DNA from: Spirochaetia bacterium
GTDB lineage: Bacteria; Spirochaetota; Spirochaetia; CADAEX01
Direction of reading: 5' to 3'
DNA: 64,000 bases
NCBI GenBank assembly: GCA_963662265.2
Contig: CAXXHA010000028.1
Coordinates: 39,137-103,136 of the forward strand
This document shows positions 17,627 through 61,515 of this stretch, piece after piece. Below the pieces are notes generated by a model. It had not been told where the DNA came from and searched no databases. It saw nothing but the letters and a program-made list of their open reading frames with translations. Position numbers and translations under genes: made by a program. How positions within the stretch are numbered: the stretch's first letter is position 1; every line of letters begins with the position of its first letter.

Positions 17627-18577
17627 TTATCCTGCTTTATTTAATAGTATATGCAGTAATTTTTTTATTTTTATCACACTGCTGTATTTGATAAAAAAAG
17701 ACAATCCTTCAATATAATTCAACATATTTAAAGGTCGATTTTTTACAGATTTAATAAAATACCAGAATGCAGTTTTTTTATCGGCTAGCAATATATATTC
17801 CCTGCATAAAGTTAAATTATGACTATTAAGAATTCTATTAATTTCTTTTTTTGTCAGTAAATTAAAATGATTTTTTTTAATTTCAAGAAGGTATTCCCTT
17901 CCTTTAATAATTTTCTCGTTAGTGTTAATTCTTTCTTCATCATGGAGATAAACTGAAGTCAGTATTTCATCAACATAATCAACTTCGTAACCATTTAAAA
18001 GGATCCTTAGAACAAGATCATATTCTTGCCCGCAGATGAGATCCCGGAATCCATGGACCTCTTCAACAATATCTTTTTTAAAAAGCATTGTTGATGTAAT
18101 AGCAATATTCCTCAACAATTGATACTTAACTGCATTCCCCCGAACATTAGCTACACTGTATCTCAGGATTTTATCATTATCATCAAGGTAATTGTTTTTA
18201 CAATAAACAATTGCAAGTTTTTCATTATCTTTTTCTTTAAAAAGATTAACCTGTTTTTCAATTTTTGTCGGAAATAGATAATCATCATCATCAAGAAATG
18301 ATATGAATGTACAAGAAGCATATTTTAAGCCAGTATTTCTTGCGGCTGGAGCACCCATGTTTTTTTCATGTTTTATATATTTTATTCTTTTATCAGTTAA
18401 CAATACTTCAACAGCGGCTTCTGTATTTTTTCTTTCTTCAGAACCAGGATTATTATCATCAACTATTATTATTTCAATATTTGTAAATGTCTGCCTGAAA
18501 ACACTCTCAACAGTTTTTTTAAGCCTTTCAGGTCTCTTATAAGTAGGAATTACAACAGTAACTTTATCCACGTACAA
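17627..18577 (-). CDS. Glycosyltransferase family 2
   Basis: VVIPTYKR, IIVDD, ARNTG and FLDDDD. Confidence 0.9.
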   Translation of the reverse strand: MYVDKVTVVIPTYKRPERLKKTVESVFRQTFTNIEIIIVDDNNPGSEERKNTEAAVEVLLTDKRIKYIKHEKNMGAPAARNTGLKYASCTFISFLDDDDYLFPTKIEKQVNLFKEKDNEKLAIVYCKNNYLDDNDKILRYSVANVRGNAVKYQLLRNIAITSTMLFKKDIVEEVHGFRDLICGQEYDLVLRILLNGYEVDYVDEILTSVYLHDEERINTNEKIIKGREYLLEIKKNHFNLLTKKEINRILNSHNLTLCREYILLADKKTAFWYFIKSVKNRPLNMLNYIEGLSFFIKYSSVIKIKKLLHILLNKAG

Positions 18578-19970
18578 CCTTCTTTATTTTTTTGAAATTA
18601 TCAATAATTTCATTTTTATATATAAAAACAAATACTACAAACGGAATTATCTGCTGATATTTAAACCCCGAATAATCAAGTATACATGTAGCAATAAAAA
18701 GCAGAACTGAAGAATATATTTTTATCCAGTTGATTCCATATTTATAATATTTATCTGCAATATGAGACCTTAAAATGAAAAATACAATATAAGAAAAACC
18801 TATTGATATAGATGCTCCCCATATACCATATGCTTTAATAAATATATAATTTGATACAATATTCACTATTAATACAATAAGTGTAATAACAACATGCCAG
18901 TAAGTTTTTTTGGCAAAGTTGATACCTACAACAGTAATTTCCGATAAAATATTCATTACAGGAACAAGCAAAAGAAATGGAATCACAAAAACAGCATTGC
19001 TGTACTCTGCAGAGATAATCTTAATTATTATATTTTTAGAAAAGACAACCATATACGCAAAGAAAAACATTATAAAAGTCATCAAATTAGCAACTTTTTT
19101 ATAAAAATATTTATTATCCTCTTTTTCAAATTTTTCAAATGCTACAGGAATCCAGAAAGTTTGAAATGTTGTCTGAATAATTTTTAAAGCACCTACAATT
19201 TTAAATCCGACACTGTAAATACCAAGGTCTTCAAAAGAACAAAGTGATCTAATAAATATTTTATCTGTGCTTTCAAAAACAAAATAAAGTATCTGTGACG
19301 GAATAAAGGGGAGTCCGTATAAGAAAAGGTTTTTAAAACTAATATGTATTTTTCTGAAATTTTTCAGCAAACTGATCCAGTATTTTCTGCTGAAATAAAA
19401 TCCTGTCAGCATTGAACCGAATATACTTAAAATATAAGCAATAACTATAGAATCATAACTTTTTGATACAAACATCGTAAGAAAAATAGCTATAGATGTA
19501 TTCAATAATGCCTGAACAAAATTCAGTATTGAACAATGAATTCCTTTCTGCTGCATTCTTAAAACCAGAAATACATATCTGTAAATTATAGAAAATAAAA
19601 CAGCAACAAAAAGCATTATAAAAACTTTTAAACTGTAATTTTCAAATAAATAAGAAGTAATTTCTTTATAAAAATTTACAGAAATAATAAAAGTCAGAAG
19701 CAACAAAACAACACTGTAATTTATTGCTTTAAAAATTATTGCCTTTTGAGTTAAGTCATCTTTCTCATAAAAGACCCTCATAAATGAAGCATCAAGTCCC
19801 ATTAACATTATAGTAAGAAGTATTTTATGAGCCAGAATAAACATGGATGACTTACCCAGTTCATCAGGCAGAATCAGCCAAGTCAGTACTGGAACAAGAA
19901 AAATATTAATAACTGCTGCGAAATAGGATCCTATAGAAAATGAAAAATATTTTTTTACTAATTTAGACAT
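18564..19970 (-). CDS. wzx: Wzx-type oligosaccharide flippase
   Basis: About 12-14 TM helices; YGLPFIP...TDKIFI...LGIYSVG MOP-family pattern. Confidence 0.85.
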   Translation of the reverse strand: MSKLVKKYFSFSIGSYFAAVINIFLVPVLTWLILPDELGKSSMFILAHKILLTIMLMGLDASFMRVFYEKDDLTQKAIIFKAINYSVVLLLLTFIISVNFYKEITSYLFENYSLKVFIMLFVAVLFSIIYRYVFLVLRMQQKGIHCSILNFVQALLNTSIAIFLTMFVSKSYDSIVIAYILSIFGSMLTGFYFSRKYWISLLKNFRKIHISFKNLFLYGLPFIPSQILYFVFESTDKIFIRSLCSFEDLGIYSVGFKIVGALKIIQTTFQTFWIPVAFEKFEKEDNKYFYKKVANLMTFIMFFFAYMVVFSKNIIIKIISAEYSNAVFVIPFLLLVPVMNILSEITVVGINFAKKTYWHVVITLIVLIVNIVSNYIFIKAYGIWGASISIGFSYIVFFILRSHIADKYYKYGINWIKIYSSVLLFIATCILDYSGFKYQQIIPFVVFVFIYKNEIIDNFKKIKKVVRG

Positions 19971-22141: not shown

Positions 22142-23371
22142 CTATCTAATTCTCTTTTTTTTCCAGATTATTTTGTTATACATTAGCCAATTGTAAGGAA
22201 CAACAAGTAAGCCTATCGCTAAAATAAGAGATACCTGCCGAACAAAAACAGTATCTGATATTAATATTGTTGCCAACCCTATAAACACAAACTGGATGAT
22301 AATTGCGCCAAATGAAGTTAAATTAAATTTAAGAAAACTGGAAAGTACATGTTTTATTCTGTTTAATTTTCTATCTGAAAAAGTCCAGTTATTGTTTAGT
22401 ATGTAATTTGATATTATTGCCATTTCTGTAGCCATTCCAGCGGCCCATGAAGATGGATTTGATAATAAATTAATAGGTTTTCCTGTTAATTTAATAATTA
22501 CATCTGATATATTTACAGCAATACTGTTTCTAAATACTTCCATAAACACAGCATTTACCAAAAATCCGATGAAGCCGACAATTCCAAATTTTACAAACCG
22601 TCTTGTTTCTTTATCGCAGCATCTAAGTCGGATAACTGTCTTTAAAATCTCAACAGGAGTCTGGCCAGTTATTTTAGATTCACCTTCTTCTCTTAATTTA
22701 AAATTCAAAGGGATTTCCTTAACATTTGCACCGCTTTTTACTGTTCGGAAAAGCCATTCCAGCTTATATCCAAATCCTCTTGAATATATCTGTTCATAGT
22801 TTATTTTATTTAATACTGGATATACTCTTGTCGCTTTTAACCCGGTTGTAGGATCTGTAACTTTAAAAAAATCTTTTGTCGGGAAAAAAAGAATCATTCT
22901 TGCAACAAATCCACCAAAAACACTGAAGAATAATCGCTTTAATCCCCAATTTTCAGGGAATCCTCCCCCTTTTACCCTTCTGGAGCCCAATACATAATCA
23001 TATCCGTTATCAATTTCCTCAAGCATTACAGGTATTGTTTCGGGAGGATGCTGAAAATCTCCATCAAATTCAAATACAACATCTGCATCCAATTCATTAA
23101 CTGCATATTTAAAACCTTTTATATATGCTGCGCCAATACCTTCTTTTTCTTTTTCTTCATATAAGAATAAATCTTTATATTTTTCCTTTCTTTTTTTTAC
23201 TTCTTCCGCAGTACCATCAGGAGACTGTCCGTCTACTATCAATATTTTTAATATCCAGTTTTTAACAGGAATTATTTTGCTAAAGAGATAATCAATCATT
23301 TTACCGATCGATTCTTTTTCATTATATGTCGGTATTACTACTACAGCTGTTTTTTCATTTTGTGTTTTCAT
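22142..23371 (-). CDS. Polyprenol-phosphate glycosyltransferase (DPM1-like GT2) fused to a GtrA flippase domain
   Basis: IPTYNE, VDGQSPDGT, FDGDFQHPP, DPTTG; C-terminal RFVKFGIVG...NYILNNNWTF GtrA pattern. Confidence 0.88.
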   Translation of the reverse strand: MKTQNEKTAVVVIPTYNEKESIGKMIDYLFSKIIPVKNWILKILIVDGQSPDGTAEEVKKRKEKYKDLFLYEEKEKEGIGAAYIKGFKYAVNELDADVVFEFDGDFQHPPETIPVMLEEIDNGYDYVLGSRRVKGGGFPENWGLKRLFFSVFGGFVARMILFFPTKDFFKVTDPTTGLKATRVYPVLNKINYEQIYSRGFGYKLEWLFRTVKSGANVKEIPLNFKLREEGESKITGQTPVEILKTVIRLRCCDKETRRFVKFGIVGFIGFLVNAVFMEVFRNSIAVNISDVIIKLTGKPINLLSNPSSWAAGMATEMAIISNYILNNNWTFSDRKLNRIKHVLSSFLKFNLTSFGAIIIQFVFIGLATILISDTVFVRQVSLILAIGLLVVPYNWLMYNKIIWKKKRIR

Positions 23372-24912
23372 TAATTTCCATCTTTTCTTTTATATATTTT
23401 ACAGTTATTTACAACCTTAACAGGTATATAATTCATTTCAATAATCTTATGAAATTTATCTAAATTATTCTGTATATATTCATTGACAATCCTTCCATCT
23501 GAATCAAAATATTCAGTTTTGTCTATAATCAAAACAGGAGGATTATCATTAAATTTTTCAAAAAAATAATTGTAAACAAGATCTGCACTTTCCCTGGTTC
23601 TTAGATAATTATTTCCAAGTAAATGACCGCTGGGATCATATACAGGATTTGCTAATAATCTATCTGAGGCAAAATAATATGCGCCGCCAAAAGGCCATAC
23701 AAATATTTTGTCATCCTTTGATGTATTAGATTTTATATATTCTATAACATTGTTCTTATTATTCATATATTCTGTCCATGTGGGAGGATGATGCATTATA
23801 TTAAAATGTAAATGAAGGAAAGGTGGAAATGATAATAATACAACAATAAAACAATAAATGATTTTTTTGTTTACTGTTTTATTAAATATAATATTTATAT
23901 TGTCAATAAAAATAGAAAGTCCAGCTGCACAAATTGGAATAATTGATAAAAAAGTCAAATAATAATATCGTTCTACATGCTTTCCGCCGGAAAATGCTGA
24001 TAGATAAGTAAATAAGAAAACTAATAATAAAAATAGATTCTCTTTTTCCCTTAATTTTTTTCGTTTGGATATCAGATAATAACATCCAAAAATCAGGATT
24101 GGAACTAATCCAACTAAAAACCGAAGGACTAGAATTCCCCGTGCTATTCTTTTAAAGAGTGAGTAAGCACCAACATAATACCCTGAAAAAGAATACTGCC
24201 ATAGAAGCAAATCATCTAAAGAGTTATTCAATTTATAATATAATAAAACCATTAGCGGAGGTAACAAAAAAAACACAGCTGAAGTAATAATTTTTAATAC
24301 TTTTTTTATTGAAGTGTTGTTTGATAACGCAACTATGACAACATATGGAATAACTAATATTCCGATTCGCATGTTAATTAAAAATGCAAAAGATAAAAAT
24401 AATGAAGATAATAGTAAATTACTCCATGAAAGTTCCATTTTTTTTCTAACAAAAAAATACATACTGATTGAAGTAAAAAAAACTACAAAAACTTCGGTAT
24501 TTGCAGCAAGAACTTCACTAGCCCTTACACAGGTGCTGTATGAAGCAAATAATAAAGCTGCCAAAAACCCTGCTTTTTTGTTAAACAACTCTTTTGTAAT
24601 CAGCCAGAAAAAAACAGAAATTGAGAAAACACAACAAATATTTACAATTTTAAGCACAAAAAAATCATTTTGAAAATTATCACCACCAAGAAAATCAATA
24701 AAAGAATAGATATAAAAAATTCCAGGAGATTTAATATCTGCAAAATCTTGATAAGGAAGACCACCTGCATTAATAATTTTTGCAGCAGTCATATAAAAAA
24801 ATTCGTCTTCTTTCCAAGAGTAATAAGGGAAAATTACAGATCTGAAAAGTATAACTGTAAATATGAGAAAAATTATTTTTGAAAATGTATAGTTATTAAA
24901 GGTTTTTTCCAT
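23371..24912 (-). CDS. GT-C fold (ArnT/PMT-like) glycosyltransferase
   Basis: DEFFY...GGLPYQDFADIKSPG first-loop motif, ANTE motif, about 11 TM helices and a periplasmic C-terminus. Confidence 0.8.
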   Translation of the reverse strand: MEKTFNNYTFSKIIFLIFTVILFRSVIFPYYSWKEDEFFYMTAAKIINAGGLPYQDFADIKSPGIFYIYSFIDFLGGDNFQNDFFVLKIVNICCVFSISVFFWLITKELFNKKAGFLAALLFASYSTCVRASEVLAANTEVFVVFFTSISMYFFVRKKMELSWSNLLLSSLFLSFAFLINMRIGILVIPYVVIVALSNNTSIKKVLKIITSAVFFLLPPLMVLLYYKLNNSLDDLLLWQYSFSGYYVGAYSLFKRIARGILVLRFLVGLVPILIFGCYYLISKRKKLREKENLFLLLVFLFTYLSAFSGGKHVERYYYLTFLSIIPICAAGLSIFIDNINIIFNKTVNKKIIYCFIVVLLSFPPFLHLHFNIMHHPPTWTEYMNNKNNVIEYIKSNTSKDDKIFVWPFGGAYYFASDRLLANPVYDPSGHLLGNNYLRTRESADLVYNYFFEKFNDNPPVLIIDKTEYFDSDGRIVNEYIQNNLDKFHKIIEMNYIPVKVVNNCKIYKRKDGN

Positions 24913-24924
24913 TGCACCAACCTG

Positions 24925-27849
24925 CTATTTTATTTTCTTCCAGTTTTTTGAATCAAAAATATTATTTTTAACACTATATTGGAATTCAATATTAATAGAT
25001 TTATTTCTTAAAACCTGTTCCCATCTCCAGGTATCAGCTTTAGTAAAGGTAAGCTCACGGGAAAAACTATTATCACTTGCTGTAAAATTATTACCAAAGA
25101 TATTTTTATCCAAAACACCAGAAGCAACGAGTGACGGAACATCGGAATTACTCATAAATCTATTATCAATTTTCATTTTGTCAGAATTATTAAAATCTTT
25201 AACCAGCAAAAGAGCATGAGCACGTGTAAATTCTTTTGCACTCAATCCTTCAATATTGAAACTGTCTTTCATCATAGGATTAATAGCAACTTCATTTCCA
25301 TGGTCGGAAACAATAATAATTCTTGTATTATCATATAATTCCTCATTTTTCAGCCAGGTGATCCATTTGGAAACTGATCTCAAAGCTGCCTTTGCACTAT
25401 AATATGCACTCAAACCTTCCTCATTATTTCCAGTTTCCGGATCAGGATATCCATTAGTCAAATTTCCATCTTTATCTATTGAATAAGGTACATGTGTTGT
25501 AAAATTATGAAAAAACTTAAATGTATTTCCATCTGATTCAGAATTTGACAGCTCTCCAAGCAGGTCAAGGAAAGCATATGATCTGAGAGCATGATTATAG
25601 GCCCTGTTTTTAATTGTATCACTGTTGATAAAAATCCACCTGCCGCTGTTATAGATAAAAGGTTTTATTATAAAAGGTACAGATTTAAATATTGATACAG
25701 CTAGTAAAATATTACTGGAATAATTTTCAATATCGTCAGATGAAACATTAATTGAATTTTTATGAACCCAATAATTAACATAATCTCTGTCAAAAACTGC
25801 TAAGATATCCTGCTTTTTAAGACTGGACAAACTTCCCAATGGAGTATGATATGAATCAGGATTTGTACGTGCTATTTTGAAATCATTATCCTTCAGTTTA
25901 TTATGTAAATCATCATAGGATTTTGAAATAACATTTACTATATAATCATCTTTCCGTTTATTTATTTCATCAGGCAAATATTTAAATCCGGCATTTATTG
26001 AAGGAAGACTTGTTGTTGTATGATATCCAACACTAAGAGTATTAGGGTACCAGTAGAAACCTGTATAGTTACTCATTATTTCAGGCTCTTCATCAAGAAC
26101 CTGCTGAATATATCCACCTGTAAACATGTCCAGCAACAATACAACAATGTTCTTTCCATTTCTGGAAAATCCAAGTAATTCATCATTATAATCAGGAACA
26201 AAATCATTGTTGTTACTAAAATCACTGACAAAAGCTTCATTATTAATTTTTCTTATTCCGTAAATACTGACTGATGTCTGAACAAAACCTATAAGACACA
26301 TTAATATGAAAAAACCAAACAGCTGTTTCCGCCATGATTTTACAAGAAACACTGAACCAATAAAAATCAAAATCAGTACACAGAATTCAAGAAGTATTCC
26401 AGAAAGTTCGGTATGAAGATTATTTGCTTTTGATAAAGTAAATTGATCAAGAGAACCAAAATCTCCGATAAATACTGTATTATATACAAGAATCAAAATA
26501 GCAAGAAAAACCATAAAGTAATTTACAGAACTTACTTTCTTTTTAGGAATTATAAATATCCCGGCTAATATAATTGAATAGATCAAACCTGCTATAGCTA
26601 AAAGAACAAAAACAATACTGAATATAGATTTATTAAAATCACCAGGTGAAGTTGCAAAAAGCCTGATTGGTGTATAAACAATTACCATCAATATAGAATA
26701 TAAAGCAGATAATAAGTAAATTCTTTTATTATATTTTATAATACCAGTTTCTTTTTGATCTGTAATTTTATTTATATATATTGCAGGGAACATTATACCG
26801 ATCAGCATAAGATGCGATGCAATATATAATTTTTTAAAAATATCCAGTGTTGATATTATATTAATTTTAAAGCAATTATCAAAAGAAAGAAAAAGAACAG
26901 CAAATACAGTTAATACAATAATCGACTTATAGATTTTATAAAGGATATTTCTACTCTTATCCTTGAAAATAACTATAAATGAATATATTTCAACAATAAA
27001 CATGAGAAAATAAACAAGATTCAGAGCATTAAATCTTGTTTCGGAATATTTATATCCAAAATGAAATATCAGTAAATAAAAAATCAACGAAATAATTACA
27101 AGATAAATATAAAATATTTTTAAATTGTTGTAATTAATTTCTTTTTTAATAAAACCAAGAAAATCCGGACTCTCTTCATTTTCAATAAAATAAAGAACAA
27201 TATTCTTAAAAAGAGAAAAAATATTATTAAATGTCCAGTATAATAAAAGAGAAGATGGTGAGTTATATAAAAGTACAAGAAATAAGCCAGCCATAATCCA
27301 TAACTGTATCTTATCTTTTTTTTCTAAACCTTTTGTATAAACATATGCAGATAAAATATTAACAACAGTCATTATAAAAGGCATAATATTTATATTCATA
27401 CCGGCTAAATTTATTAATTGATCAGCCGTTCCAAGATCATCAAGAAAAAGAAAATTTATACCTAATAGGTCAGGCAGATGAGACAGCAGGTGATAAGCAG
27501 ACATAAAAAAAGGAACCTGAATAAGAAATCCAAAACTAACCCGGAAAGCCATCAGCGGATTATAATTAAATCGCCGATATACGGCCATTGTATAATAATA
27601 TTTTAATTCTCCGGAAAAAGCTTCATTTATTTTATCAAGCTCCGGTTTCATTTTTTTTGTTATACATCTTTCAGCTTTCTGCCATTTTTCTGCCAGCAGA
27701 TATAAAGGAATAAGAACAATATTTACACAAATACTTAATAAAATTATTGAAAATCCGTAGTTATCAGTTAATGAGAAAGAAAATCTCAGTATAATATTCA
27801 TTAAACATTCAAGAGGAAAAATAAATATATTATATAAAAAATGCATCAT
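24925..27849 (-). CDS. YidC/Oxa1-domain protein fused to a multi-TM linker and an alkaline-phosphatase-superfamily (LtaS/EptA-like) domain
   Basis: N-terminal YGFSIILLS..LIPL, MKPELDKI, LIQVPFF and PSSLLLYWTFNNIFS. C-terminal NIVVLLLD, HTTTSLPS, THVPY and IIIVSDHG. Confidence 0.88.
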   Translation of the reverse strand: MMHFLYNIFIFPLECLMNIILRFSFSLTDNYGFSIILLSICVNIVLIPLYLLAEKWQKAERCITKKMKPELDKINEAFSGELKYYYTMAVYRRFNYNPLMAFRVSFGFLIQVPFFMSAYHLLSHLPDLLGINFLFLDDLGTADQLINLAGMNINIMPFIMTVVNILSAYVYTKGLEKKDKIQLWIMAGLFLVLLYNSPSSLLLYWTFNNIFSLFKNIVLYFIENEESPDFLGFIKKEINYNNLKIFYIYLVIISLIFYLLIFHFGYKYSETRFNALNLVYFLMFIVEIYSFIVIFKDKSRNILYKIYKSIIVLTVFAVLFLSFDNCFKINIISTLDIFKKLYIASHLMLIGIMFPAIYINKITDQKETGIIKYNKRIYLLSALYSILMVIVYTPIRLFATSPGDFNKSIFSIVFVLLAIAGLIYSIILAGIFIIPKKKVSSVNYFMVFLAILILVYNTVFIGDFGSLDQFTLSKANNLHTELSGILLEFCVLILIFIGSVFLVKSWRKQLFGFFILMCLIGFVQTSVSIYGIRKINNEAFVSDFSNNNDFVPDYNDELLGFSRNGKNIVVLLLDMFTGGYIQQVLDEEPEIMSNYTGFYWYPNTLSVGYHTTTSLPSINAGFKYLPDEINKRKDDYIVNVISKSYDDLHNKLKDNDFKIARTNPDSYHTPLGSLSSLKKQDILAVFDRDYVNYWVHKNSINVSSDDIENYSSNILLAVSIFKSVPFIIKPFIYNSGRWIFINSDTIKNRAYNHALRSYAFLDLLGELSNSESDGNTFKFFHNFTTHVPYSIDKDGNLTNGYPDPETGNNEEGLSAYYSAKAALRSVSKWITWLKNEELYDNTRIIIVSDHGNEVAINPMMKDSFNIEGLSAKEFTRAHALLLVKDFNNSDKMKIDNRFMSNSDVPSLVASGVLDKNIFGNNFTASDNSFSRELTFTKADTWRWEQVLRNKSINIEFQYSVKNNIFDSKNWKKIK

Positions 27850-29126
27850 TATACTGTACTCAAACCTTCAGAAATCTTTATCAACTGTTCTGCAGCAGTA
27901 TCTCCTGCAGATCCAAAATTATAGAAAGATTTTTCAATTAATAGATTAATATCTTTTAAATCAAAATCCGTTATCAATTCCTCTACAAAATCAGGTAATT
28001 TATCCAACTCACTTTCATCAACCAGTTTTCCCAGTTTTTCCCTGATATTCAATTCCCAAATATCATTGAGATCCATATCATCTGCTTCAAGTCCAATTGT
28101 TTCAACTGGAGCATCTATAGTAATAACAGGTTTTTTATACATAAAAGAGTATTCAAAAATTATACCTGATAAATCAGATATAAGAATGTCAGATTTTGTC
28201 ATAGCCGTTTCACCTGAAGGATTTTCATCCCATATAATCTCACTGTATTCTGCTGTTTCCTTTTTCAGTTTTTTAATTAAATCTTTTTGAGAAACATACA
28301 TTTGAGGATGCGGCCTGAGAATAATTTTGTAATTTCGGTTAAGCAATGGTTTGATAATATTCATTTCAAAACGAGTTAAAAGGCTGTTTTTATTCCAGGT
28401 TGGAGCTAATAGAATTGTTTTTATTTCATTACCTTTCTTTTCAGATTCAAGTTTCTTTTTAAGCATTACATCAAAAGGTGTATAACCAGTTTCATATAGT
28501 TCTTTTTTGGCTGTTCCCCTCATTTCTTCAAAACGGATGAGATTTTCTTTCTGATGAGGTCCGGAACATAAAATTGAATCAAAACAGTCAAACGCATAAC
28601 GCCCATATATACCTATATCAGTCGGAGCATGAAATATATGTGTATAATGCTTTACAGACTTAGACCGCCTGATTGTTAAAATATCGAGCTGCGGTGTTGT
28701 CATTACAACAAGATTAGCTTTCATATTATTTAAAAAAACAGAAGACTTAACTGCATTTCCAATATACAAAGAATCTACAATTGTTGAATTATATTTCAAT
28801 CCTGGATCATCTTTATCTGATGAAATATAAATACATTTCCGGCTAAGATTTTCAAGCGCTTTTACTACAGAAGAAAAAACAATCCAGTATTGTTTTCCCT
28901 CAGAAAATAATACTATTTCATATTTCCGTAAATCATTATCTGTATTAACAGCTTTTCCAGTAAAAAAATATTTAAACCTGTAATATACTCCCTTAACAGC
29001 ATATAATGCAGCTGCCACAATACCGACAAATGCATATAAAAGCATACTGCCGGTGCCTGGATCTATATATGAGTAGGCAGGAAACGTAACCAGCAATAAA
29101 AATATAAATATATAATACAGTCTCAT
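27849..29126 (-). CDS. CDP-glycerol/alditol phosphotransferase family (TagB/TagF-like) with an N-terminal membrane hairpin
   Basis: HIFHA, TGYTPFD, ILLAPTW, ILRPHP and SDILISDLSGIIFEY; N-terminal signal plus YIDPGTGS plus TM helix. Confidence 0.85.
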   Translation of the reverse strand: MRLYYIFIFLLLVTFPAYSYIDPGTGSMLLYAFVGIVAAALYAVKGVYYRFKYFFTGKAVNTDNDLRKYEIVLFSEGKQYWIVFSSVVKALENLSRKCIYISSDKDDPGLKYNSTIVDSLYIGNAVKSSVFLNNMKANLVVMTTPQLDILTIRRSKSVKHYTHIFHAPTDIGIYGRYAFDCFDSILCSGPHQKENLIRFEEMRGTAKKELYETGYTPFDVMLKKKLESEKKGNEIKTILLAPTWNKNSLLTRFEMNIIKPLLNRNYKIILRPHPQMYVSQKDLIKKLKKETAEYSEIIWDENPSGETAMTKSDILISDLSGIIFEYSFMYKKPVITIDAPVETIGLEADDMDLNDIWELNIREKLGKLVDESELDKLPDFVEELITDFDLKDINLLIEKSFYNFGSAGDTAAEQLIKISEGLSTV

Positions 29127-29575
29127 TCAGATCGCTCTTCTACAATATCTCCATTTACCAGCTTGATAACATGTGTTGTTGAAATATCTTTAGTACGGGG
29201 AACAATTACAACCTTCCCCAGTTCATATAAATGACCAAACCAGTATTTAACATACTCCTCATCATCGGAAGCAACAAACATGGCATCTACTTTATATTTC
29301 TCCATAAATTCATCGACTTTTGCCGAATCAGTGGCATGAGGCCCCCATGATCTGTCGATAATAACAGCATCATCTGTATATCTACATGCTTTTATTATTT
29401 CAAGTCTCTCATTTTCATTAAAAATGGGTTTTCTTTTTTCCTGCATTGTAAGTTCATCAGAATCTATAGTAACGATAACTTCTTCAAACATCTCTTTAGC
29501 TCTTTTTAACAGCCTCACATGCCCCACATGGAAAAGATCAAATACCCCGTTAACAGCACATCTTTTATAATTCAT
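29123..29575 (-). CDS. TagD-like cytidylyltransferase (copy 2)
   Basis: GVFDLFHVGH and PRTKDISTT motifs. Confidence 0.88.
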   Translation of the reverse strand: MNYKRCAVNGVFDLFHVGHVRLLKRAKEMFEEVIVTIDSDELTMQEKRKPIFNENERLEIIKACRYTDDAVIIDRSWGPHATDSAKVDEFMEKYKVDAMFVASDDEEYVKYWFGHLYELGKVVIVPRTKDISTTHVIKLVNGDIVEERSE

Positions 29576-29652
29576 ACTTAATCCTTTAATTCCAATACAT
29601 CACTCATATAAACTCTCCATCAGCAAGGAATACATGTAAGCTAAGAGCAAAT

Positions 29653-30138
29653 CTAACCGAAATCAGAAAGTTCCTTATCATTTTTCTTTACTCTATCCCG
29701 TGTTATTTCGCCATTCACAATTTTAATTACATGTGTTGTTGATATATCCTGAGTTCTGGGAACAACAACAGTTCTATTGGTTTTATGAAGATGAGAGAAC
29801 CATTTTAATACATCTTCTTCTGTATCTGCTGCTATAAAAACTGCATCAAGATTATATTGATCCATGAAATTGTCGACCTTGTCATCTTCAAAAGCAAAAG
29901 GACCATATGAATCATCAACTAATACAGCATCATCAACATAACTACATGATTTAACAATATTCAGCCTGTCCATTTCACTGAAAACAGGCTGTCTTTTTAC
30001 TCGGGATGCAAATTCATCAGAATCAACAGCAGCAATTACTTCATCAAATATTTCTTTAGCTCTTTTTAAGAGATTTACATGACCAATGTGAAAAAGATCA
30101 AAAACTCCATTGACAACACACCTGCTGTATTTCATCAA
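29653..30138 (-). CDS. TagD-like cytidylyltransferase (copy 1)
   Basis: GVFDLFHIGH and PRTQDISTT motifs. Confidence 0.88.
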   Translation of the reverse strand: MMKYSRCVVNGVFDLFHIGHVNLLKRAKEIFDEVIAAVDSDEFASRVKRQPVFSEMDRLNIVKSCSYVDDAVLVDDSYGPFAFEDDKVDNFMDQYNLDAVFIAADTEEDVLKWFSHLHKTNRTVVVPRTQDISTTHVIKIVNGEITRDRVKKNDKELSDFG

Positions 30139-30228: not shown

Positions 30229-31530
30229 TTAAACACCGACACCAGTATATGAAAATCCTGACTTTTCAACATTTTCAGAATTATAAACATTTCGAAGATC
30301 GACAAATACATTGCCGTTCATTACATCGTTCAGCTTTTTAAAATCTAGCGCCCTGTACTGGTTCCATTCTGTCATTATTACAACAGCATCTGCACCCTTA
30401 CATGTTTCATAGGGGTCGTTATAATACTCAACTTTTTCAAGATGCGGTTTTGCCTCTTCCATACCTTCAGGATCAGTAAGTCTTAATACAGCACCATCAT
30501 TAACAAGAGACGGAACAATTGTAAGCGCTGGAGCTTCTCTCATATCATCAGTCTCCGGCTTGAAAGTAAGACCCAAGACTGCAATAGTTTTTCCTGATAC
30601 TTCTCCGCCGAGAGCCTTTCTGATTTTTTTAACCATCAGAGATTTCTGTGAATTATTCACATTGAGAACAGATTCGAGAATTCTTGAACTCATTCCGTTG
30701 TCATGAAAAATCTTTACAAGAGCAGTAACATCCTTTGGAAAGCATGATCCGCCGTATCCGGGACCTGCATGGAGGAATTTTGAACCGATCCTCTTATCAA
30801 GGCCCATTCCTTTCGAAACATCCTTGACATCTGCACCTACTTTTTCACAAAGGTTTGCAATTTCATTGATAAAAGATATTTTTGCGGCAAGAAAAGAATT
30901 GCTTGCATATTTTATAAGCTCAGCTGTTTCTAGGCCTGTTATAACCATCGGTGTTTCAAGGAGATAAAGAGGTCTGTAAAGCTCTCTTAAAAGCTCTTTA
31001 GCCCTGTCGCTTTCAGCTCCAAGTACAACCCTGTCAGGTCTCATAAAATCGCCGATTGCAGATCCTTCCCTGAGAAATTCCGGGTTTGATGCTACATCGA
31101 AATCAGCTTCAGGATTTGTATCCCTGATAATTCTTTCAACATTTCTTGCAGTGCCTACAGGAACTGTACTCTTATCAACAATTACAGTATAGCCTTTAAG
31201 ATGGGATGCAATCTCCTCAGCTGCGCTGTAAACATAACTGAGATCAGCATAGCCGTCTCCTCTTCTTGAAGGAGTTCCGACAGCAATAAATACAACATCA
31301 GCCTCTTCAACAGGTGGCTCATATGAGAGAGAAAAGCTGATTCTTCCAGCTCTTACATTTTTTTTAACCAGATCTTCAAGACCTGGTTCATAAATAGGCA
31401 TAATTCCGTTTTTAAGAGCATTGATTCTTTCTTCACTCTTATCAACACATACGACATCCCAGCCGAACTCTGCAAAACATGTCCCAGATACAAGCCCTAC
31501 ATAGCCTGTTCCTATCATAACTATTTTCAT
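30229..31530 (-). CDS. ugd: UDP-glucose 6-dehydrogenase
   Basis: GTGYVG, KSTVPVGT, NPEFLREG, GYGGSCFPKD and FKPETDDMREAP. Confidence 0.95.
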   Translation of the reverse strand: MKIVMIGTGYVGLVSGTCFAEFGWDVVCVDKSEERINALKNGIMPIYEPGLEDLVKKNVRAGRISFSLSYEPPVEEADVVFIAVGTPSRRGDGYADLSYVYSAAEEIASHLKGYTVIVDKSTVPVGTARNVERIIRDTNPEADFDVASNPEFLREGSAIGDFMRPDRVVLGAESDRAKELLRELYRPLYLLETPMVITGLETAELIKYASNSFLAAKISFINEIANLCEKVGADVKDVSKGMGLDKRIGSKFLHAGPGYGGSCFPKDVTALVKIFHDNGMSSRILESVLNVNNSQKSLMVKKIRKALGGEVSGKTIAVLGLTFKPETDDMREAPALTIVPSLVNDGAVLRLTDPEGMEEAKPHLEKVEYYNDPYETCKGADAVVIMTEWNQYRALDFKKLNDVMNGNVFVDLRNVYNSENVEKSGFSYTGVGV

Positions 31531-31533
31531 TGT

Positions 31534-32883
31534 TTATTCCTTTAATTCATAAATATCATTAAAAACTGTGTTACCAAGTTTATATTTTTCAGTATCAATC
31601 ATATAAATCTGCTCCAGATTTTTTTTAAATCCTTTATTTACAAAATTATTTATAAAATTCAGATTACTATTATCTAAATCGGTTTTTATAAACCAGAATT
31701 TCCCATAATTATTATTGCTCACAATTAAAAACATAAGTTTTAGGCTGTTTTTGATTATATGATCTGGGATATCATAATAATTGTTATCAAATAGTTTATA
31801 TCCGGTAATTACAGGAGTTCCTGTAAAAGCAATACTTATATTACGGGATTTTAAATTATTAATCACTCCCTTGTATTTCAATGGAAGAAGAAGCAGTGTT
31901 TTAGAATCCGAGTATTTCTCTATATACTGCATTATTTCATTATTATATTGTTCTTCCGGATTGATACTTCCGGAATATAAAAAGCGAGTATCAACTGAAA
32001 GAAAATCAGTATCCGGAATAGTAAAAACAGACTTAAAATCCATAAAAGGACTTTTTACCTGACAGTTTTTAAATACTTCAGAACCATAAAATTTTATCTG
32101 TTCTTCACCAAAATATGAATCAACATCATGCGGAAGGTTATTATCAATAAAGCTGTTTAAAAATAAATCACTTATAGAAAAAGGTCTTAATTCGGCATTT
32201 TTATCAAGACAGTATACATTTCTTCCAATCTTTTCAGATTTATTTAATATGATCATCTTTTCTTCAAAATCAGGATTCCCTATAATAATAATATTTTCAG
32301 TCTCTCTTTCAGAATTTGAAACAGGGATACCTAAAAAAGAGGAATCAAGATCTGTAACACTTTTAGTATAAATGAAAGATATTTTCACATCATTATTATT
32401 GATAATATTCTGCAGTGTTTTCTTCTCATGAATACCAAAGTTTGAAGAAAATACTCCCATTTCCGGAATTATTTTATTATCAGAAAACTTTATATTTCTG
32501 TAGAAAAAATATCTTATAAACATCATTCCTGCAGAAGTCACCATATATTCTGTGAAAATAATTGCAAGCGGCATTCTTATTTCCTGAATTGGAGAAAATA
32601 ATCTGAGAAATAAAAACAAAAGTGAGGAATATATATTAATTTTAAATATTTTTATTATCATTTCTCTCTGAAATGTGTTGTAATAATAAGAATATCCTTC
32701 AAGAAGCATAGTTACAAGAATCCTCGTTAAAATTACATAAGGCATAATGAAAAGAAGCCCTTCTATTGTATAGAAAAACTCTTTAAACCTGGATCTAATC
32801 ATCCAAGATGCAACGAGAGATATTACAATGATTAAAATATCAAGAAGAATAAGAGAAAAACTGTATTTATTATTTTTTTTCAT
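31534..32883 (-). CDS. Membrane protein resembling a degenerate CapD/WbpM/PglF
   Basis: Four N-terminal TM helices with LLD..., MPLAIIFTEY...IRYFFYR, then RPFSISDLF; no intact Rossmann glycine motif or YxxxK. Confidence 0.5.
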   Translation of the reverse strand: MKKNNKYSFSLILLDILIIVISLVASWMIRSRFKEFFYTIEGLLFIMPYVILTRILVTMLLEGYSYYYNTFQREMIIKIFKINIYSSLLFLFLRLFSPIQEIRMPLAIIFTEYMVTSAGMMFIRYFFYRNIKFSDNKIIPEMGVFSSNFGIHEKKTLQNIINNNDVKISFIYTKSVTDLDSSFLGIPVSNSERETENIIIIGNPDFEEKMIILNKSEKIGRNVYCLDKNAELRPFSISDLFLNSFIDNNLPHDVDSYFGEEQIKFYGSEVFKNCQVKSPFMDFKSVFTIPDTDFLSVDTRFLYSGSINPEEQYNNEIMQYIEKYSDSKTLLLLPLKYKGVINNLKSRNISIAFTGTPVITGYKLFDNNYYDIPDHIIKNSLKLMFLIVSNNNYGKFWFIKTDLDNSNLNFINNFVNKGFKKNLEQIYMIDTEKYKLGNTVFNDIYELKE

Positions 32884-34069
32884 TTTCAGAAAACACTCCG
32901 TCCAATATTACTTTAAACTGATTCAGTGAATTATTAATAGAATAATATTTCTCAGAAAAATGTTTAATTCTTCTACAAATATTTCTGTAATTTTCAAAAT
33001 CAGAATTCAGCTTTTTTATATATGATATAACATTATCTATATCTGTACTGTTTTCCAGAACAATCCCAATTTCATTAGTAATCAGAATTTCCCCAATTTC
33101 AGAATTTTTAGGACCAAAAAAGATCATCGGTCTACCGGATGCCAGATAACTATAGAATTTTGATGGGACAATATCTCCAACAGAATCCTTTTTCTGAGCT
33201 AACATTAGAACAGACGCATTACTCAAATTTTTACTGACTTCTTCAATAGGAGCATATGGTTCGAATTTAAAATAAATTTCTTTGTTGTCAAATAATTGAC
33301 AAGTTTTATTATAATTTTTCCCTCCGCCTACAAAATGGAAATAAATATTTTCTTCTTTAAAATATGGAACAGATATTAAATCCTCCATAATACTCAAATC
33401 ATGGGGTATTCCTATATTACCAGAATAAAGAATTTCAAACACATCTTTTTGTTGAGGATCATTATATTCAATCATATTAGGCCAATTATGAATAATGGAA
33501 ATTCTTTTGCCGGGAATATTATAGTTTTCAATTTTCCTTTTCATATAACTGCCAATTGTAATAATTTCGGCAGATTTTTTTATTGCAAGTTTATTAAATA
33601 CTTTTAAGCGCCTCACTATCCAGGGATTTTTAATAATTTTAAGGTCATATAATATTTCAGGATAAAGATCCTGGACATAAAAAATCATCTTAGTATTTCT
33701 GAAAAGGTTTGCAAAACCAACAGAAAACTGTATAAGAGGAGGCAGAGTCAAAGTAACAACACAATCATACTTTTCTTTAAAAATAAGAAATATAAAAACT
33801 TTAATATAAAATAACAGATAGTTTATAAGTTTTCCCATCATATTATTTTTCTTAAAATTTGTAGCTTTTAACTTCTGAATTATTACATTATCAGGAATAT
33901 TAACTTCCCAGTCTGTTTCATCTTTATAATATTCACTGCTGGTTGACAAGACTGTTATCTCGTATTTCTTATCAGATGACAGTTTGAGAATAAATTCTGT
34001 AAATAATTGTGATATTGCAGAAATATCAGGATAAAAATAATACGGAATAAAAAGAATTCTTTTCATCAT
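32870..34069 (-). CDS. Glycosyltransferase family 4 (WbuB/WcaI-like)
   Basis: YFYPD, TLPP, VQDLYPE, IHNW, YSGNIG and VPSKFYSYLASGRP. Confidence 0.88.
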   Translation of the reverse strand: MMKRILFIPYYFYPDISAISQLFTEFILKLSSDKKYEITVLSTSSEYYKDETDWEVNIPDNVIIQKLKATNFKKNNMMGKLINYLLFYIKVFIFLIFKEKYDCVVTLTLPPLIQFSVGFANLFRNTKMIFYVQDLYPEILYDLKIIKNPWIVRRLKVFNKLAIKKSAEIITIGSYMKRKIENYNIPGKRISIIHNWPNMIEYNDPQQKDVFEILYSGNIGIPHDLSIMEDLISVPYFKEENIYFHFVGGGKNYNKTCQLFDNKEIYFKFEPYAPIEEVSKNLSNASVLMLAQKKDSVGDIVPSKFYSYLASGRPMIFFGPKNSEIGEILITNEIGIVLENSTDIDNVISYIKKLNSDFENYRNICRRIKHFSEKYYSINNSLNQFKVILDGVFSENEKK

Positions 34070-35187
34070 TTTTCATCCTGCTTATGTTCTGTATATAAAT
34101 AAACAGAGTAAAATAAAAAAATAAGAATTAAATGTATATTTGCTCTGTATCTTATAGCTGCTCCCGAATTCATAATTCCCTGAATATATTGTGCAAATGA
34201 TATCCACCAGAATGTTGTCACAAGCATAAAAAACCACTGATAATAATTTTTAAAATTTATAAAGACTGGAACAATTTTATCCTTAATTAAAAATAATAAT
34301 ACCCCATAATAAAGAAAACTCTCAATAAATGAAAATAAATGAAGTATAGAATATTTTATTTCGGAAAATGACGGTCCCCACATAGAAAGCGGCATTAAAT
34401 ATGGAAGTTTTTTAAAAAAGTCATATTGTTCAAGAAACATCATCTCTCTTGTAGATCTAGCATTTTTACTATACCAGTCATCTAATTGACGAGAATAACT
34501 ATCAATTTTGTCTTTAAAAATATATATTAATATTAACGATCCAATAATTACAAAAATCCATAAAATAATTTCAGTCTTCCATTTTATACTAACGAATTTT
34601 TTATATATGGCAAATAAAACTAATAGATATACTGCCGGAATATACTGTGTTTTAATTACTGTTATCAAATATAATGCAATTATTAAACTAAAAGATATTT
34701 TGATTTTTTGCCCAATAATTACTTTAATAATTTCACTTAAAAATATTCCGATCGAAAAAACAATTAATGCTTCTTTTCCTGCAACAGATGACCAGATATT
34801 AAAAGATGGAAAATAACATAACAGTATAATAATCTTATAATTTTTAGTATTTTCAGGTATGGATTTAAGAAATTTTCGAATACCATAATATGCAATAAGA
34901 GAACAAAAAATATGAATCAAGATATCATATCGTAATAGAGAACTTATGGATCCTATGAGAAATCTGGGAAGAAGAGTTCTTTCAATAAATATTCCAAATT
35001 TGTAAGTATAAAAAAGTTCAACAGGGTTTGAACTTATATACAGTCCGGTATCTCCGAGAAAAGTCATTTTTTTTATTACAAATTCAGCAACAAATGCAAG
35101 AATAAGCCTGTAAAATAATAAATAATCAATTAATTTATTATTAAAAAATTTTTCTTTTATTTTTATATCATTCATATTAACACTCAA
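34066..35187 (-). CDS. Putative Wzy-like polysaccharide polymerase
   Basis: About 10 TM helices; GDTGLY, PSFNIWSSVAGKEA and NSGAAIRYR motifs seen in polymerase-like glycan-locus proteins. Confidence 0.6.
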   Translation of the reverse strand: MSVNMNDIKIKEKFFNNKLIDYLLFYRLILAFVAEFVIKKMTFLGDTGLYISSNPVELFYTYKFGIFIERTLLPRFLIGSISSLLRYDILIHIFCSLIAYYGIRKFLKSIPENTKNYKIIILLCYFPSFNIWSSVAGKEALIVFSIGIFLSEIIKVIIGQKIKISFSLIIALYLITVIKTQYIPAVYLLVLFAIYKKFVSIKWKTEIILWIFVIIGSLILIYIFKDKIDSYSRQLDDWYSKNARSTREMMFLEQYDFFKKLPYLMPLSMWGPSFSEIKYSILHLFSFIESFLYYGVLLFLIKDKIVPVFINFKNYYQWFFMLVTTFWWISFAQYIQGIMNSGAAIRYRANIHLILIFLFYSVYLYTEHKQDEK

Positions 35188-36059: not shown

Positions 36060-37229
36060 TTAAAATGATGCAGAAAGTTCAAGTGTCATTACAAATGCAA
36101 CACGTCTTCCACTGAGATCTTCATCATCTTCATTATAATATCTTGATCCTGTAGTACCATAGTTTACTGGAACAGCTATACTGGATTTAACAAACTTCCA
36201 TGGAGACCAGGAAATTCCTGGCAAAAATTTACCAGAATTATCCATAAATCCATGCTTCCACTCAAGCCCAAGATCAACAGGAGATGAAAACAGGTTATTA
36301 TACCCAAGTGCTATTCCCACACTATGATCCTCACCTCCAGATGTTTTACCATCAAAACTATATTCACCATAAAGTTTGAAATCATCCCATTCTCTGAAAA
36401 ACCCGGCAACTGTCTGGAAAAAATAATCATCTCGGATATCATCATATGTAAATACAAGATCTGTAAAAATATCTGTCTTTAAAACAACTTTTTTTAAAGA
36501 GTTGAGAACACGAAGCCCCTCATTTCTCTGATATCTTGTTCCTGCAGAATAGTAATAACTTCCGAAAAGTGTATCCAGAAGTGCTCCTGCAGCAACATCT
36601 TTAGACGATAAACTTTCTCCCGATGTATTAAGATTTTCATCAAGAAGAGTCACAAATGACAAGCCGCTGAATACTGATGGAAAACTAACCCTGAATGCAA
36701 CACCATCCTCGCTGTTTTCCATAAGGTTTCCAGGAGTAAAAAGCCTCCCCTGTCCCCATGTTATCTTGTGCTTCCCTATTCTTAAGAATGCTGTATCAAG
36801 CCAGGTGTAATCGCAGAAAAGTTCATCAATTTTTGCTTCTGACCAGTCTGTATTTCCAGAACCGGGATCTATTTCAGTGTAAAAATTGCCGGTAACAGCA
36901 AAATCCGGATCAGGTTTTGCATTGAATTTTACTCTCGCAAGAGATTTTGCTCCAATTTCAGCATCAAGACCTTCAAGAGGATCTGAGAAGTCAGGAGTTT
37001 CTTTCCAGCCGACAGCACCTCCTCCTGTTGCGGAAAAAGAACCGCTGAAACTGATTTTATCTTCCTGTTCGAACTGGGTTATATGATCGGTTTCTGTATT
37101 TTCTACAATAATATCTTCTGCAGGTTCCTCAAACAGATCATCAATACTTTCATCTGTCTGCTGAGAAACAGCAGACATGATTAAAACTGTGCTAAATAGC
37201 GCAATACATAATATCAGCCTGAATTCCAC
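36060..37229 (-). CDS. Outer-membrane beta-barrel protein with an acidic N-terminal extension
   Basis: Signal peptide; IDELFCDY, LRIGKHKITWGQG; ends LELSASF (terminal Phe). Confidence 0.7.
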   Translation of the reverse strand: MEFRLILCIALFSTVLIMSAVSQQTDESIDDLFEEPAEDIIVENTETDHITQFEQEDKISFSGSFSATGGGAVGWKETPDFSDPLEGLDAEIGAKSLARVKFNAKPDPDFAVTGNFYTEIDPGSGNTDWSEAKIDELFCDYTWLDTAFLRIGKHKITWGQGRLFTPGNLMENSEDGVAFRVSFPSVFSGLSFVTLLDENLNTSGESLSSKDVAAGALLDTLFGSYYYSAGTRYQRNEGLRVLNSLKKVVLKTDIFTDLVFTYDDIRDDYFFQTVAGFFREWDDFKLYGEYSFDGKTSGGEDHSVGIALGYNNLFSSPVDLGLEWKHGFMDNSGKFLPGISWSPWKFVKSSIAVPVNYGTTGSRYYNEDDEDLSGRRVAFVMTLELSASF

Positions 37230-40808: not shown

Positions 40809-41237
40809 CTATATATGTTTTTTTCTAAAAACCAGACGATCATATCCAATAAAATTTATACATACAGCAATAAAAATACCAATTAATGTATTTAATCTAT
40901 AATCCATTCCAGATTTTGATAACACTGCAAAGAGAATTATTCTGATAAGAAAAGAAATTCCTGTTACACCATGAAATATTATTAAGCCTTTTAATACAGA
41001 ACTGCTGTTCTCAAATGTATGTTTCCAGCTAATACGTGAATGTAGATAAAAAGCAACAAGAATTGATATCTCTATACTTATAACATTAGCAGTATTTTCC
41101 AACAAAATAGTGGAAAATTTTAGATATTCAACAAACAAATACATAGACAAAAACTGAGACGTAGCGACTATGAATCCACTAAATCCATACCTGATAATTT
41201 TTGCCAATAATCTATTACTGTTATAAATTGATTTCAT
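40809..41237 (-). CDS. GtrA family flippase
   Basis: 142 aa with four TM helices; IIRYGFSG, AFYLHSRISW and NFIGYDRLVF. Confidence 0.85.
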   Translation of the reverse strand: MKSIYNSNRLLAKIIRYGFSGFIVATSQFLSMYLFVEYLKFSTILLENTANVISIEISILVAFYLHSRISWKHTFENSSSVLKGLIIFHGVTGISFLIRIILFAVLSKSGMDYRLNTLIGIFIAVCINFIGYDRLVFRKKHI

Positions 41238-41250
41238 TTAAATTAACAAT

Positions 41251-61495: not shown

Positions 61496-61515
61496 AATAA
61501 TATTCTCCTTCTATA

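Follow-up and report, generated by a model that had tools for sequence, protein, structure and literature searches.

Groups attached to surface glycans through phosphate, among them glycerol-phosphate, phosphoethanolamine, phosphocholine and aminoethylphosphonate, influence charge, recognition by the immune system and the sensitivity to phages and antimicrobial peptides. The known routes to such decorations are either cytoplasmic, through LicD, or proceed through enzymes of the LtaS/EptA/GacH type acting on bulk phospholipids; LtaS, EptA, GacH and OpgB draw on ordinary membrane phospholipids as donors. The locus considered here lies in a stretch of 64,000 nucleotides from a Spirochaetia bacterium (GenBank assembly GCA_963662265.2, contig CAXXHA010000028.1, positions 39,137 to 103,136 of the forward strand), the whole of which is termed the window below. 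Four open reading frames (ORFs) of the minus strand at 24925-30138 (ORF list) encode two cytidylyltransferases, an enzyme of the TagF fold and a 974-residue fusion, in which a YidC-like module is followed by further transmembrane (TM) helices and an outer domain of the alkaline phosphatase (AP) superfamily. On balance, these four genes appear to form a head-group decoration cassette within a surface-glycan locus of about 50 kb and low GC content, and not a teichoic-acid polymer pathway.

The initial annotation of the window had described a teichoic-acid-like operon of four genes with two overlaps. The ORFs and their overlaps are borne out in the sequence: the stop codon of the first cytidylyltransferase gene (P0003) overlaps the start of the TagF-like gene in an ATGA at 29123-29126, and the TagF-like gene overlaps the fusion gene in a TAATG at 27847-27851.

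The fusion protein

The N-terminal module of the fusion is recognised as a YidC core, as had been claimed for approximately residues 1-220. Residues 31-219 match 60KD_IMP (PF02096) with 79.2 bits (cut-off 35) over profile positions 1-161 of 163, and the YidC-core model TIGR03592 is matched with 92 bits (cut-off 84.3). The core motifs Q111, Y204-W205 and N208-N209 are kept in the module. In the cytoplasmic C1 hairpin, G80 is invariant, while R92 and Y96 are at least 90% conserved. Fusion N43 lines up in the alignment with the groove arginine of YidC2 from B. halodurans (3WO6) and YidC from E. coli (3WVF), which is R72 and R366, respectively. In each of the 45 aligned family members, this column contains N, T, S or Q and never Arg or Lys; the housekeeping YidC of the same genome has Lys at this position. 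At the level of the alignment, the YidC-like module is shown to have lost the positive charge of the groove across the family.

The fusion is not the housekeeping YidC, since a YidC of 578 residues with a periplasmic domain (218 bits) stands on another contig between yidD and jag. The separate housekeeping gene expected in the initial annotation was thus found, and the fusion as the only yidC of the genome is ruled out. The fusion gene itself lies in the glycan locus, outside the yidD/rnpA-yidC-jag context.

According to hydropathy analysis, the fusion has 14 TM segments whose loops follow the positive-inside rule, and its C-terminal domain lies outside the cytoplasm. The additional helices noted earlier behind the YidC core are present, their number being nine instead of about eight according to both hydropathy and AlphaFold2 (AF2). 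The AF2 model has a mean predicted local distance difference test (pLDDT) score of 82 and is confident at residues 1-223, 375-536 and 555-974; helices with pLDDT below 55 are predicted in the linker region 226-370.

In the outer domain, D574 (LLLD), T611 (the first Thr of HTTT), H786 (THVPY) and D849/H850 (SDHG) are invariant in 45 of 45 aligned members, and the catalytic residues named in the initial annotation therefore stand as a complete Thr/metal site. Their motifs align with the matching motifs of Listeria LtaS (4uoo; phmmer E 0.0033). The best Foldseek matches of the fusion model were LtaS and LtaP, the Vibrio AP-superfamily protein 3lxq, PbgA 6v8q, EptA 5fgn and MCR-1 9nww, with E values of 5e-08 to 9e-07; the entries 2w5r and 4uor were matched in the same range. 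The PbgA, EptA and MCR-1 structures are full-length proteins of five TM helices and an AP domain. Because the catalytic residues are invariant, the LtaS motifs align and the fold matches LtaS, EptA and PbgA, the outer domain is very probably an active phosphotransferase with a Thr nucleophile.

The TagF-like partner and its predicted complex with the fusion

The 425-residue protein exceeds the cut-off of Glyphos_transf (PF04464; 22.1 bits) and covers part of the profile. Its AF2 model (pLDDT 90) shows the GT-B-like fold of TagF and has TagF 3l7k as the best Foldseek match (9.3e-14), followed by Cps3D, TarL and Bcs3, and a profile of its family matches Cps3D (2.1e-09) and TarL (2.1e-05) across the RPHP and SDFS motifs. 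These matches were given by the family profile and the fold search; a single-sequence search of the PDB returned nothing useful, and none of the NCBIfam models match the protein.

The N-terminus of the TagF-like protein consists of a signal-like helix, a Y-x-D-P-G-T-G-S motif and one TM helix, in this order. Among 48 sequences, Y20, D22, P23 and S27 of the motif are invariant and G24, T25 and G26 are at least 90% conserved. In many orthologues the motif follows an Ala-x-Ala-like signal-peptidase site, and in others it is found at the extreme N-terminus. Judged from the sequence, the motif would lie on the outer face of the membrane in either arrangement.

A complex of fusion residues 1-540 and the TagF-like protein, each with its own family alignment, was modelled in three runs alongside three controls. 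The interaction prediction score from aligned errors (ipSAE) reached 0.68, 0.67 and 0.69 for the pair and 0.00, 0.00 and 0.01 for the controls. In the calibration of the tool, this mark is reached by 58 of 80 solved complexes and by 2 of 110 mismatched pairs, counts that apply only roughly to a complex modelled from author-built alignments. The partner has pLDDT 76-78 in the complex, and the runs share at least 25% of the contacts. The confident contacts join fusion residues 73-93, which lie about G80 at the tip of the cytoplasmic C1 hairpin in the YidC-like module, with residues 148-151, 176-177, 180, 203, 205 and 344-349 of the TagF-like protein; they use its catalytic domain and not its TM anchor. 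On the TagF-like side, conservation of the predicted interface is 0.68, the mean being 0.55. We know of no solved YidC-TagF complex that the model could have memorised.

Distribution of the family and conservation of the gene pair

The same architecture was found in 146 matches of a word-indexed protein search, among which the source annotation reads YidC insertase or hypothetical protein. An exhaustive search of representatives at 50% identity gave 8138 matches at E<=1e-3, ordinary YidCs included, and 1314 at E<=1e-30; the best 150 have 745-1247 residues. Of at least 580 pattern matches in species genomes, at least 521 were confirmed as genomic relatives. An assembly artefact is ruled out, the architecture recurring in hundreds of clusters and 80 genomic loci, and the fusion reported in the initial annotation is genuine. 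The family is shown to be very large and uncharacterised: searches of the literature on YidC-sulfatase/LtaS fusions, CMP-aminoethylphosphonate transferases and aminoethylphosphonate glycerophosphotransferases yielded neither a description nor a functional study of it, and supplements could name its genes.

The neighbourhood counts refer to 80 loci kept from the confirmed genomic relatives, of which 30 are at least 20 kb long (full 10-kb flanks) and 50 are shorter. These loci span Spirochaetota, Bacteroidota, Desulfovibrionaceae, Sutterella, Verrucomicrobia, Firmicutes and an actinobacterium. Carriers include Treponema putidum, T. pectinovorum, T. brennaborense, Brachyspira alvinipulli and B. 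pulli, as well as many metagenome-assembled genomes (MAGs) of Spirochaetota, Bacteroidales, Desulfovibrionaceae, Sutterella, Verrucomicrobia, Lachnospiraceae and Clostridiales and a Paratractidigestivibacter. With the membrane base and outer domain as a query, matches were obtained in 16 of 19 other genomes of the bacterium's own family, often several per genome, and in 0 of 21 genomes that represent other families within the class.

TagF-like orthologues were detected in 57 of the 80 loci by phmmer against all locus ORFs (E about 1e-60 to 1e-112); by clustering, the gene is found in 25 of the 30 long loci and in 31 of the 50 shorter ones. Most of the TagF-like ORFs (55 of 64) have a fusion ORF on the same strand at a distance of no more than 250 bp, or no more than 30 bp for 49 of them, and they occur on either side of it (26 upstream, 29 downstream). 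The linkage of TagF to the fusion posited in the initial annotation is therefore strongly conserved. That of TagD type is not: the cassette cytidylyltransferases match in 6 and 8 of the 80 loci (phmmer), and other activation genes occur in 25. The latter are a fusion of phosphoenolpyruvate mutase and cytidylyltransferase (Ppm), a thiamine pyrophosphate enzyme of the phosphonopyruvate decarboxylase (Ppd) type and two kinds of nucleotidyltransferase-aminotransferase fusion. All 25 loci with at least one of these recurrent neighbours have a TagF-like gene; some nucleotidyltransferase or cytidylyltransferase is present in 39 of the 80 loci. Since the activation genes vary and the TagF-like/fusion pair stays, the pair is the conserved unit and the upstream activation is interchangeable. 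At least two fusion paralogues are present in 27 of the 80 loci, mostly with one TagF-like gene, which fits one donor serving several acceptors.

The pair is also found joined in single chains. Among 43 longer relatives of the TagF-like protein, some 41 have about 1010-1040 residues and carry the N-terminal motif and the TagF-like domain together with TM helices and a region that matches Sulfatase weakly, and two (1166 and 1172 residues) begin with a YidC domain. In one of these YidC-first proteins, P0315, the YidC domain is followed by a TagF-like domain and TM helices, and then by an outer domain aligning with residues 566-922 of the fusion (E 6e-12). A split form is found in a Spirochaetaceae MAG (locus L040, 9686-16890), where genes for a 737-residue TM and AP protein, a 371-residue TagF-like protein and a 219-residue stand-alone YidC-like protein are adjacent. 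These split genes are followed by an ORF of 1009 residues with a nucleotidyltransferase-like N-terminus.

Cytidylyltransferases and the candidate head group

The two cytidylyltransferases, P0003 and P0004, are 59% identical (tblastn) and exceed the CTP_transf_like cut-off of 21 bits. Both translations contain HVGH/HIGH and PRT(K/Q)DISTTH, which correspond to the motifs HxGH and RTxxISTT. As sequence signatures, these mark the wider class of glycerol-phosphate (GCT), ethanolamine-phosphate (ECT) and choline-phosphate (CCT) cytidylyltransferases and not the substrate. The TagD-like assignment of the initial annotation finds no support at the level of the substrate: with the equivalog model TIGR01518, P0003 scores 72.5 and P0004 61.3 bits (cut-off 165.4), and P0003 is equally close to the solved structures of ECT (3elb, 5.9e-18), CCT (3hl4, 1e-16) and TagD (1coz, 1e-15).

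A phosphonate head group is unlikely in this genome (90.6% complete), because no Ppm or Ppd was detectable by tblastn; the queries, taken from related loci, matched only cytidylyltransferase domains. Two paralogous genes of the choline/ethanolamine-kinase family are found elsewhere in the genome (C3:5568-6527 and C10:48524-49471), one with an aminotransferase gene as its neighbour and the other with that of an M20 peptidase, and there is no nucleotidyltransferase among their scanned neighbours. These kinase-family genes could supply phospho-bases to the cassette cytidylyltransferases.

Proposed relay and alternative explanations

In the proposed relay, the two cytidylyltransferases would supply CDP-activated head groups of one or two kinds; the simplest candidate is CDP-glycerol, as glycerol-phosphate requires no further gene, and CDP-ethanolamine or CDP-choline would be equally allowed. 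The TagF-like enzyme, its catalytic domain docked on the cytoplasmic hairpin of the YidC-like module, would transfer phospho-X to a membrane lipid carrier, which may be undecaprenyl phosphate or diacylglycerol. The polar uncharged groove of the YidC type would let the small lipid head group cross the membrane. Finally, Thr611 of the outer domain would take phospho-X and pass it to a periplasmic glycan made by the surrounding locus. The flipping step is made plausible by E. coli YidC, for which scrambling of glycerophospholipids in vitro is reported (10.1101/2023.09.01.555937). We tentatively consider it possible, rather than probable, that the YidC fold without its Arg serves as a flippase dedicated to a small head group of the phospho or phosphono kind on a lipid, loaded by the hairpin-held TagF-like enzyme and unloaded by the fused LtaS-like domain.

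The general logic put forward in the initial annotation, namely a cytoplasmic CDP-dependent step, a membrane module and an outer transferase with a Thr nucleophile, is backed by the single-chain forms and by the predicted interface of the hairpin with the TagF-like enzyme. Its teichoic-acid-like and polyol-phosphate specifics are not supported, in view of the cytidylyltransferase scores under the TagD cut-off and the aminoethylphosphonate genes at orthologous pairs. Aminoethylphosphonate has no hydroxyl and cannot be polymerised; the TagF-like enzyme of phosphonate-linked loci would therefore perform single transfers, which argues against a teichoic-acid-like polymer.

Several points weigh against the relay. 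The lipid intermediate, its flipping and the acceptor, i.e. every transport step, are steps that we infer, and a dedicated carrier may be unnecessary, since LtaS, EptA, GacH and OpgB use ordinary phospholipids. The complex model, with its approximate calibration, favours binding of the TagF-like protein to the fusion without proving it, and on the fusion side the conservation of the predicted interface is 0.48 against a mean of 0.56. A TagF-like gene is not found nearby in 5 of the 30 full-flank loci (L017, L063, L070, L078 and L081). The Pfam Sulfatase match (PF00884) at fusion residues 756-854 is weak, with 19.2 bits under the cut-off of 25; in the whole-genome search the fusion was the sole Sulfatase-family match and, with 21.8 bits, still fell under this cut-off. 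The gene content of the cassette would allow glycerol-phosphate, phosphoethanolamine and phosphocholine equally as possible head groups.

The same proteins might perform two independent decorations: the TagF-like enzyme would act on an undecaprenyl-linked glycan in the cytoplasm in the manner of LicD or TarL, the outer domain would use bulk phosphatidylglycerol or phosphatidylethanolamine in the manner of GacH, OpgB or EptA, and the YidC-like module would be merely a scaffold or folding aid. The fold matches of the fusion (LtaS/EptA) and of its partner (TagF/TarL) speak for this explanation, as do the exclusive use of bulk phospholipids by the characterised LtaS/EptA-type enzymes and the glycan-lipid acceptors on which TagF-family enzymes normally work. 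It is nevertheless unlikely, as it accounts neither for the tight pairing of the two genes and the single-chain fusions nor for the association with phosphonate genes and other genes of activation; the occurrence of several fusion paralogues with one TagF-like gene and the docking predicted at the YidC hairpin would likewise go unexplained. A true teichoic-acid-like pathway, with a polyol-phosphate polymer that is made on a lipid by the TagF-like enzyme, exported by the YidC-like groove and ligated to the surface by the outer domain, would agree with polymerases (TagF, TarL, Cps3D) being the best structural matches of the partner and with CDP-glycerol as a possible cytidylyltransferase product. 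It is rendered very improbable by the scores under the TagD equivalog cut-off, by the orthologous pairs accompanied by aminoethylphosphonate genes, whose product offers no hydroxyl to extend, and by the YidC groove, which takes short polar segments and not polymers. Neither an exporter of the teichoic-acid TagGH type nor the linkage-unit enzymes of such a pathway were recognised among the window ORFs scanned with Pfam; no search aimed at TagO, TagA and TagB was made.

The YidC-like module could also still be a protein insertase or holdase with no role in head-group transfer, serving either the 14-helix fusion in cis or the N-out tail and anchor of the partner. The YidC core is preserved in full, its Q, YW and NN motifs among the rest, and the conserved periplasmic N-terminal motif of the partner together with its single TM helix is of the N-tail type that YidC inserts. 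This is very unlikely in view of the basic groove residue missing across the family, the normal YidC in the genome, and the predicted contacts, which involve the cytoplasmic hairpin and the catalytic domain of the partner and not its TM anchor; furthermore, the module is kept as a separate gene and in TagF fusions as well. The decoration cassette is accordingly retained here as the preferred explanation of the four genes.

Surrounding glycan locus

The coordinates of the cassette, its parts and the adjoining genes are given in Table 1. The fusion start giving 974 residues is better than the database start at M17 (958 residues), because residues 1-16 align with the relatives and P12 is nearly invariant. 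The true start of P0004 is probably the ATG one codon inside the listed TTG (codon 2).

Table 1. Coordinates of the cassette genes, the protein segments discussed and the adjoining genes in the window
Feature	Position	Strand	Basis or remark
Cytidylyltransferase 2 (P0004), GCT/ECT/CCT type, 161 residues	29653-30138	-	Pfam CTP_transf_like 75.2 bits
Cytidylyltransferase 1 (P0003), 150 residues	29123-29575	-	Pfam CTP_transf_like 76.8 bits
TagF-fold CDP-alcohol phosphotransferase (P0002), membrane-anchored, 425 residues	27849-29126	-	Pfam Glyphos_transf 49.9 bits
Y-I-D-P-G-T-G-S motif of the TagF-like protein, residues 20-27	29046-29069	-	N-terminal alignment
Fusion (P0001), 974 residues: YidC-like module, 9 TM helices, outer AP-superfamily domain	24925-27849	-	
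YidC-like 5-TM module of the fusion, residues 1-223	27181-27849	-	60KD_IMP match
Cytoplasmic C1 helical hairpin, residues 54-97, turn at G80	27559-27690	-	AF2 helices 31-77 and 80-93
Variable four-helix membrane linker, residues 243-360	26770-27123	-	Hydropathy peaks, AF2 helices
Conserved five-helix membrane base, residues 375-536	26242-26727	-	Confident AF2 helices, Foldseek
Extracytoplasmic AP-superfamily domain, residues 555-974	24928-26187	-	Invariant residues, phmmer, Foldseek
GT-C glycosyltransferase (PMT_2)	23371-24912	-	Starts 12 nt after the fusion stop
GT2 domain fused to a GtrA-like domain	22142-23371	-	Pfam
UDP-glucose/GDP-mannose dehydrogenase, directly upstream of the cassette	30229-31530	-	Same family in 15 of 80 related loci

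The glycan locus of about 50 kb has a GC content of 29.5%, that of the genome being 38.5%, and contains two Wzx-type flippases, many glycosyltransferase genes of the GT2 and GT4 families, NeuB and a gene similar to CMP-sugar synthetases. By their domain content, the GT2-GtrA and GT-C genes directly downstream of the fusion are a periplasmic glycosylation cassette of the Gtr/Arn type. Phmmer over the 80 related loci matched the GT2-GtrA gene in 8, and no match to the GT-C gene, the Wzx gene or a 449-residue ORF was found in these loci. A second cassette of the Gtr/Arn type, in which a small gene for GtrA comes after a GT2 gene that stands by itself, is found at 40809-41952 (minus strand).

The Wzx-type flippases are encoded at 18564-19970 and 57776-59194, both on the minus strand; the presence of two in one locus means that more than one glycan unit may be encoded. 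Genes for NeuB, a 2-hydroxyacid dehydrogenase and a CTP_transf_3 protein at 60485-63046 (minus strand) suggest by their family assignments a nonulosonic acid. A DUF1420 protein of 604 residues (191.6 bits; 42918-44732, minus strand) is encoded among the glycosyltransferases; the family is known in Pfam from Leptospira. Two CotH-kinase family proteins are found at the edge of the locus (7742-8914 and 10995-12113, minus strand) beside a SIS-domain protein. Six ORFs of 341-461 residues, all on the minus strand, had no Pfam match at E<=1e-3 or 1e-4 (31534-32883, 34066-35187, 36060-37229, 53196-54383, 56391-57776 and 12106-13131), and some of them may be polymerases of the Wzy type or ligases. Going by gene content, the LolA-like and FtsX genes of the window and the periplasmic domain of the housekeeping YidC fit a diderm envelope.

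Significance and comparison with known systems

The cassette points to a third, widespread decoration route that has been hidden by annotation. If the proposed relay is true, this would be a general route, free of LicD and of bulk phospholipids, by which glycerol-phosphate, phosphoethanolamine, phosphocholine or aminoethylphosphonate reach the surfaces of many gut, rumen and oral bacteria, and many loci for phosphonate tailoring would gain the transfer step that they lack. The YidC fold would gain a job beyond protein insertion, in line with the recently reported scrambling of lipids by insertases, and this would be the first substrate-specific non-protein transport role in the Oxa1/YidC superfamily. 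The idea can be tested directly, since the pair is small, can be separated genetically and occurs in Treponema and Brachyspira that can be cultivated.

LtaS/LtaP, GacH, OpgB, EptA/MCR-1 and PbgA have in common with the fusion the five TM helices and an extracytoplasmic domain with the metal-binding Asp, Thr nucleophile, His and Asp-His. Unlike these enzymes, the fusion has nine further N-terminal helices, including a complete module of the YidC fold, and a Sulfatase score under the cut-off. It is furthermore accompanied by a conserved TagF-like partner, and its loci carry genes for CDP or CMP activation, which suggests a dedicated donor rather than bulk phospholipid. With YidC/SpoIIIJ/Oxa1, the fusion shares the full-length five-helix core, the C1 hairpin and the Q, YW and NN motifs. 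It differs from them by N, T, S or Q in place of the groove Arg or Lys, by the fused phosphotransferase and by a hairpin that is predicted to hold an enzyme. The partner shares the fold and the C-domain motifs binding the CDP donor with TagF/TarL, Cps3D and Bcs3, from which it is distinguished by the signal-like helix, the Y-x-D-P-G-T-G-S motif and the TM anchor, and by orthologues lying beside phosphonate genes.

With the LicD-type transferases of phosphonate tailoring loci, the cassette shares the tailoring of surface glycans by CDP- or CMP-activated head groups and, in its relatives, the neighbouring Ppm, Ppd and nucleotidyltransferase genes. The main text of Rice et al. 2019 (PMC6697681) mentions LicD-like enzymes, and a term search of this main text gave no occurrence of YidC, TagF or sulfatase. 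The main text of another phosphonate paper, which likewise has no occurrence of YidC or TagF, mentions 'multiple sulfatases' in Selenomonas phosphonate neighbourhoods; these may be genes of the fusion family. The Gtr (GtrA/GtrB/GtrC) and Arn (ArnC/ArnEF/ArnT) systems follow the same logic as that proposed here, in which a lipid carrier is charged inside, flipped and used for transfer outside, and in them, too, one charging enzyme can serve several transferases. Their folds are entirely different and their cargo is a sugar, whereas that of the relay would be phosphate- or phosphonate-linked, so that the likeness is one of working principle only.

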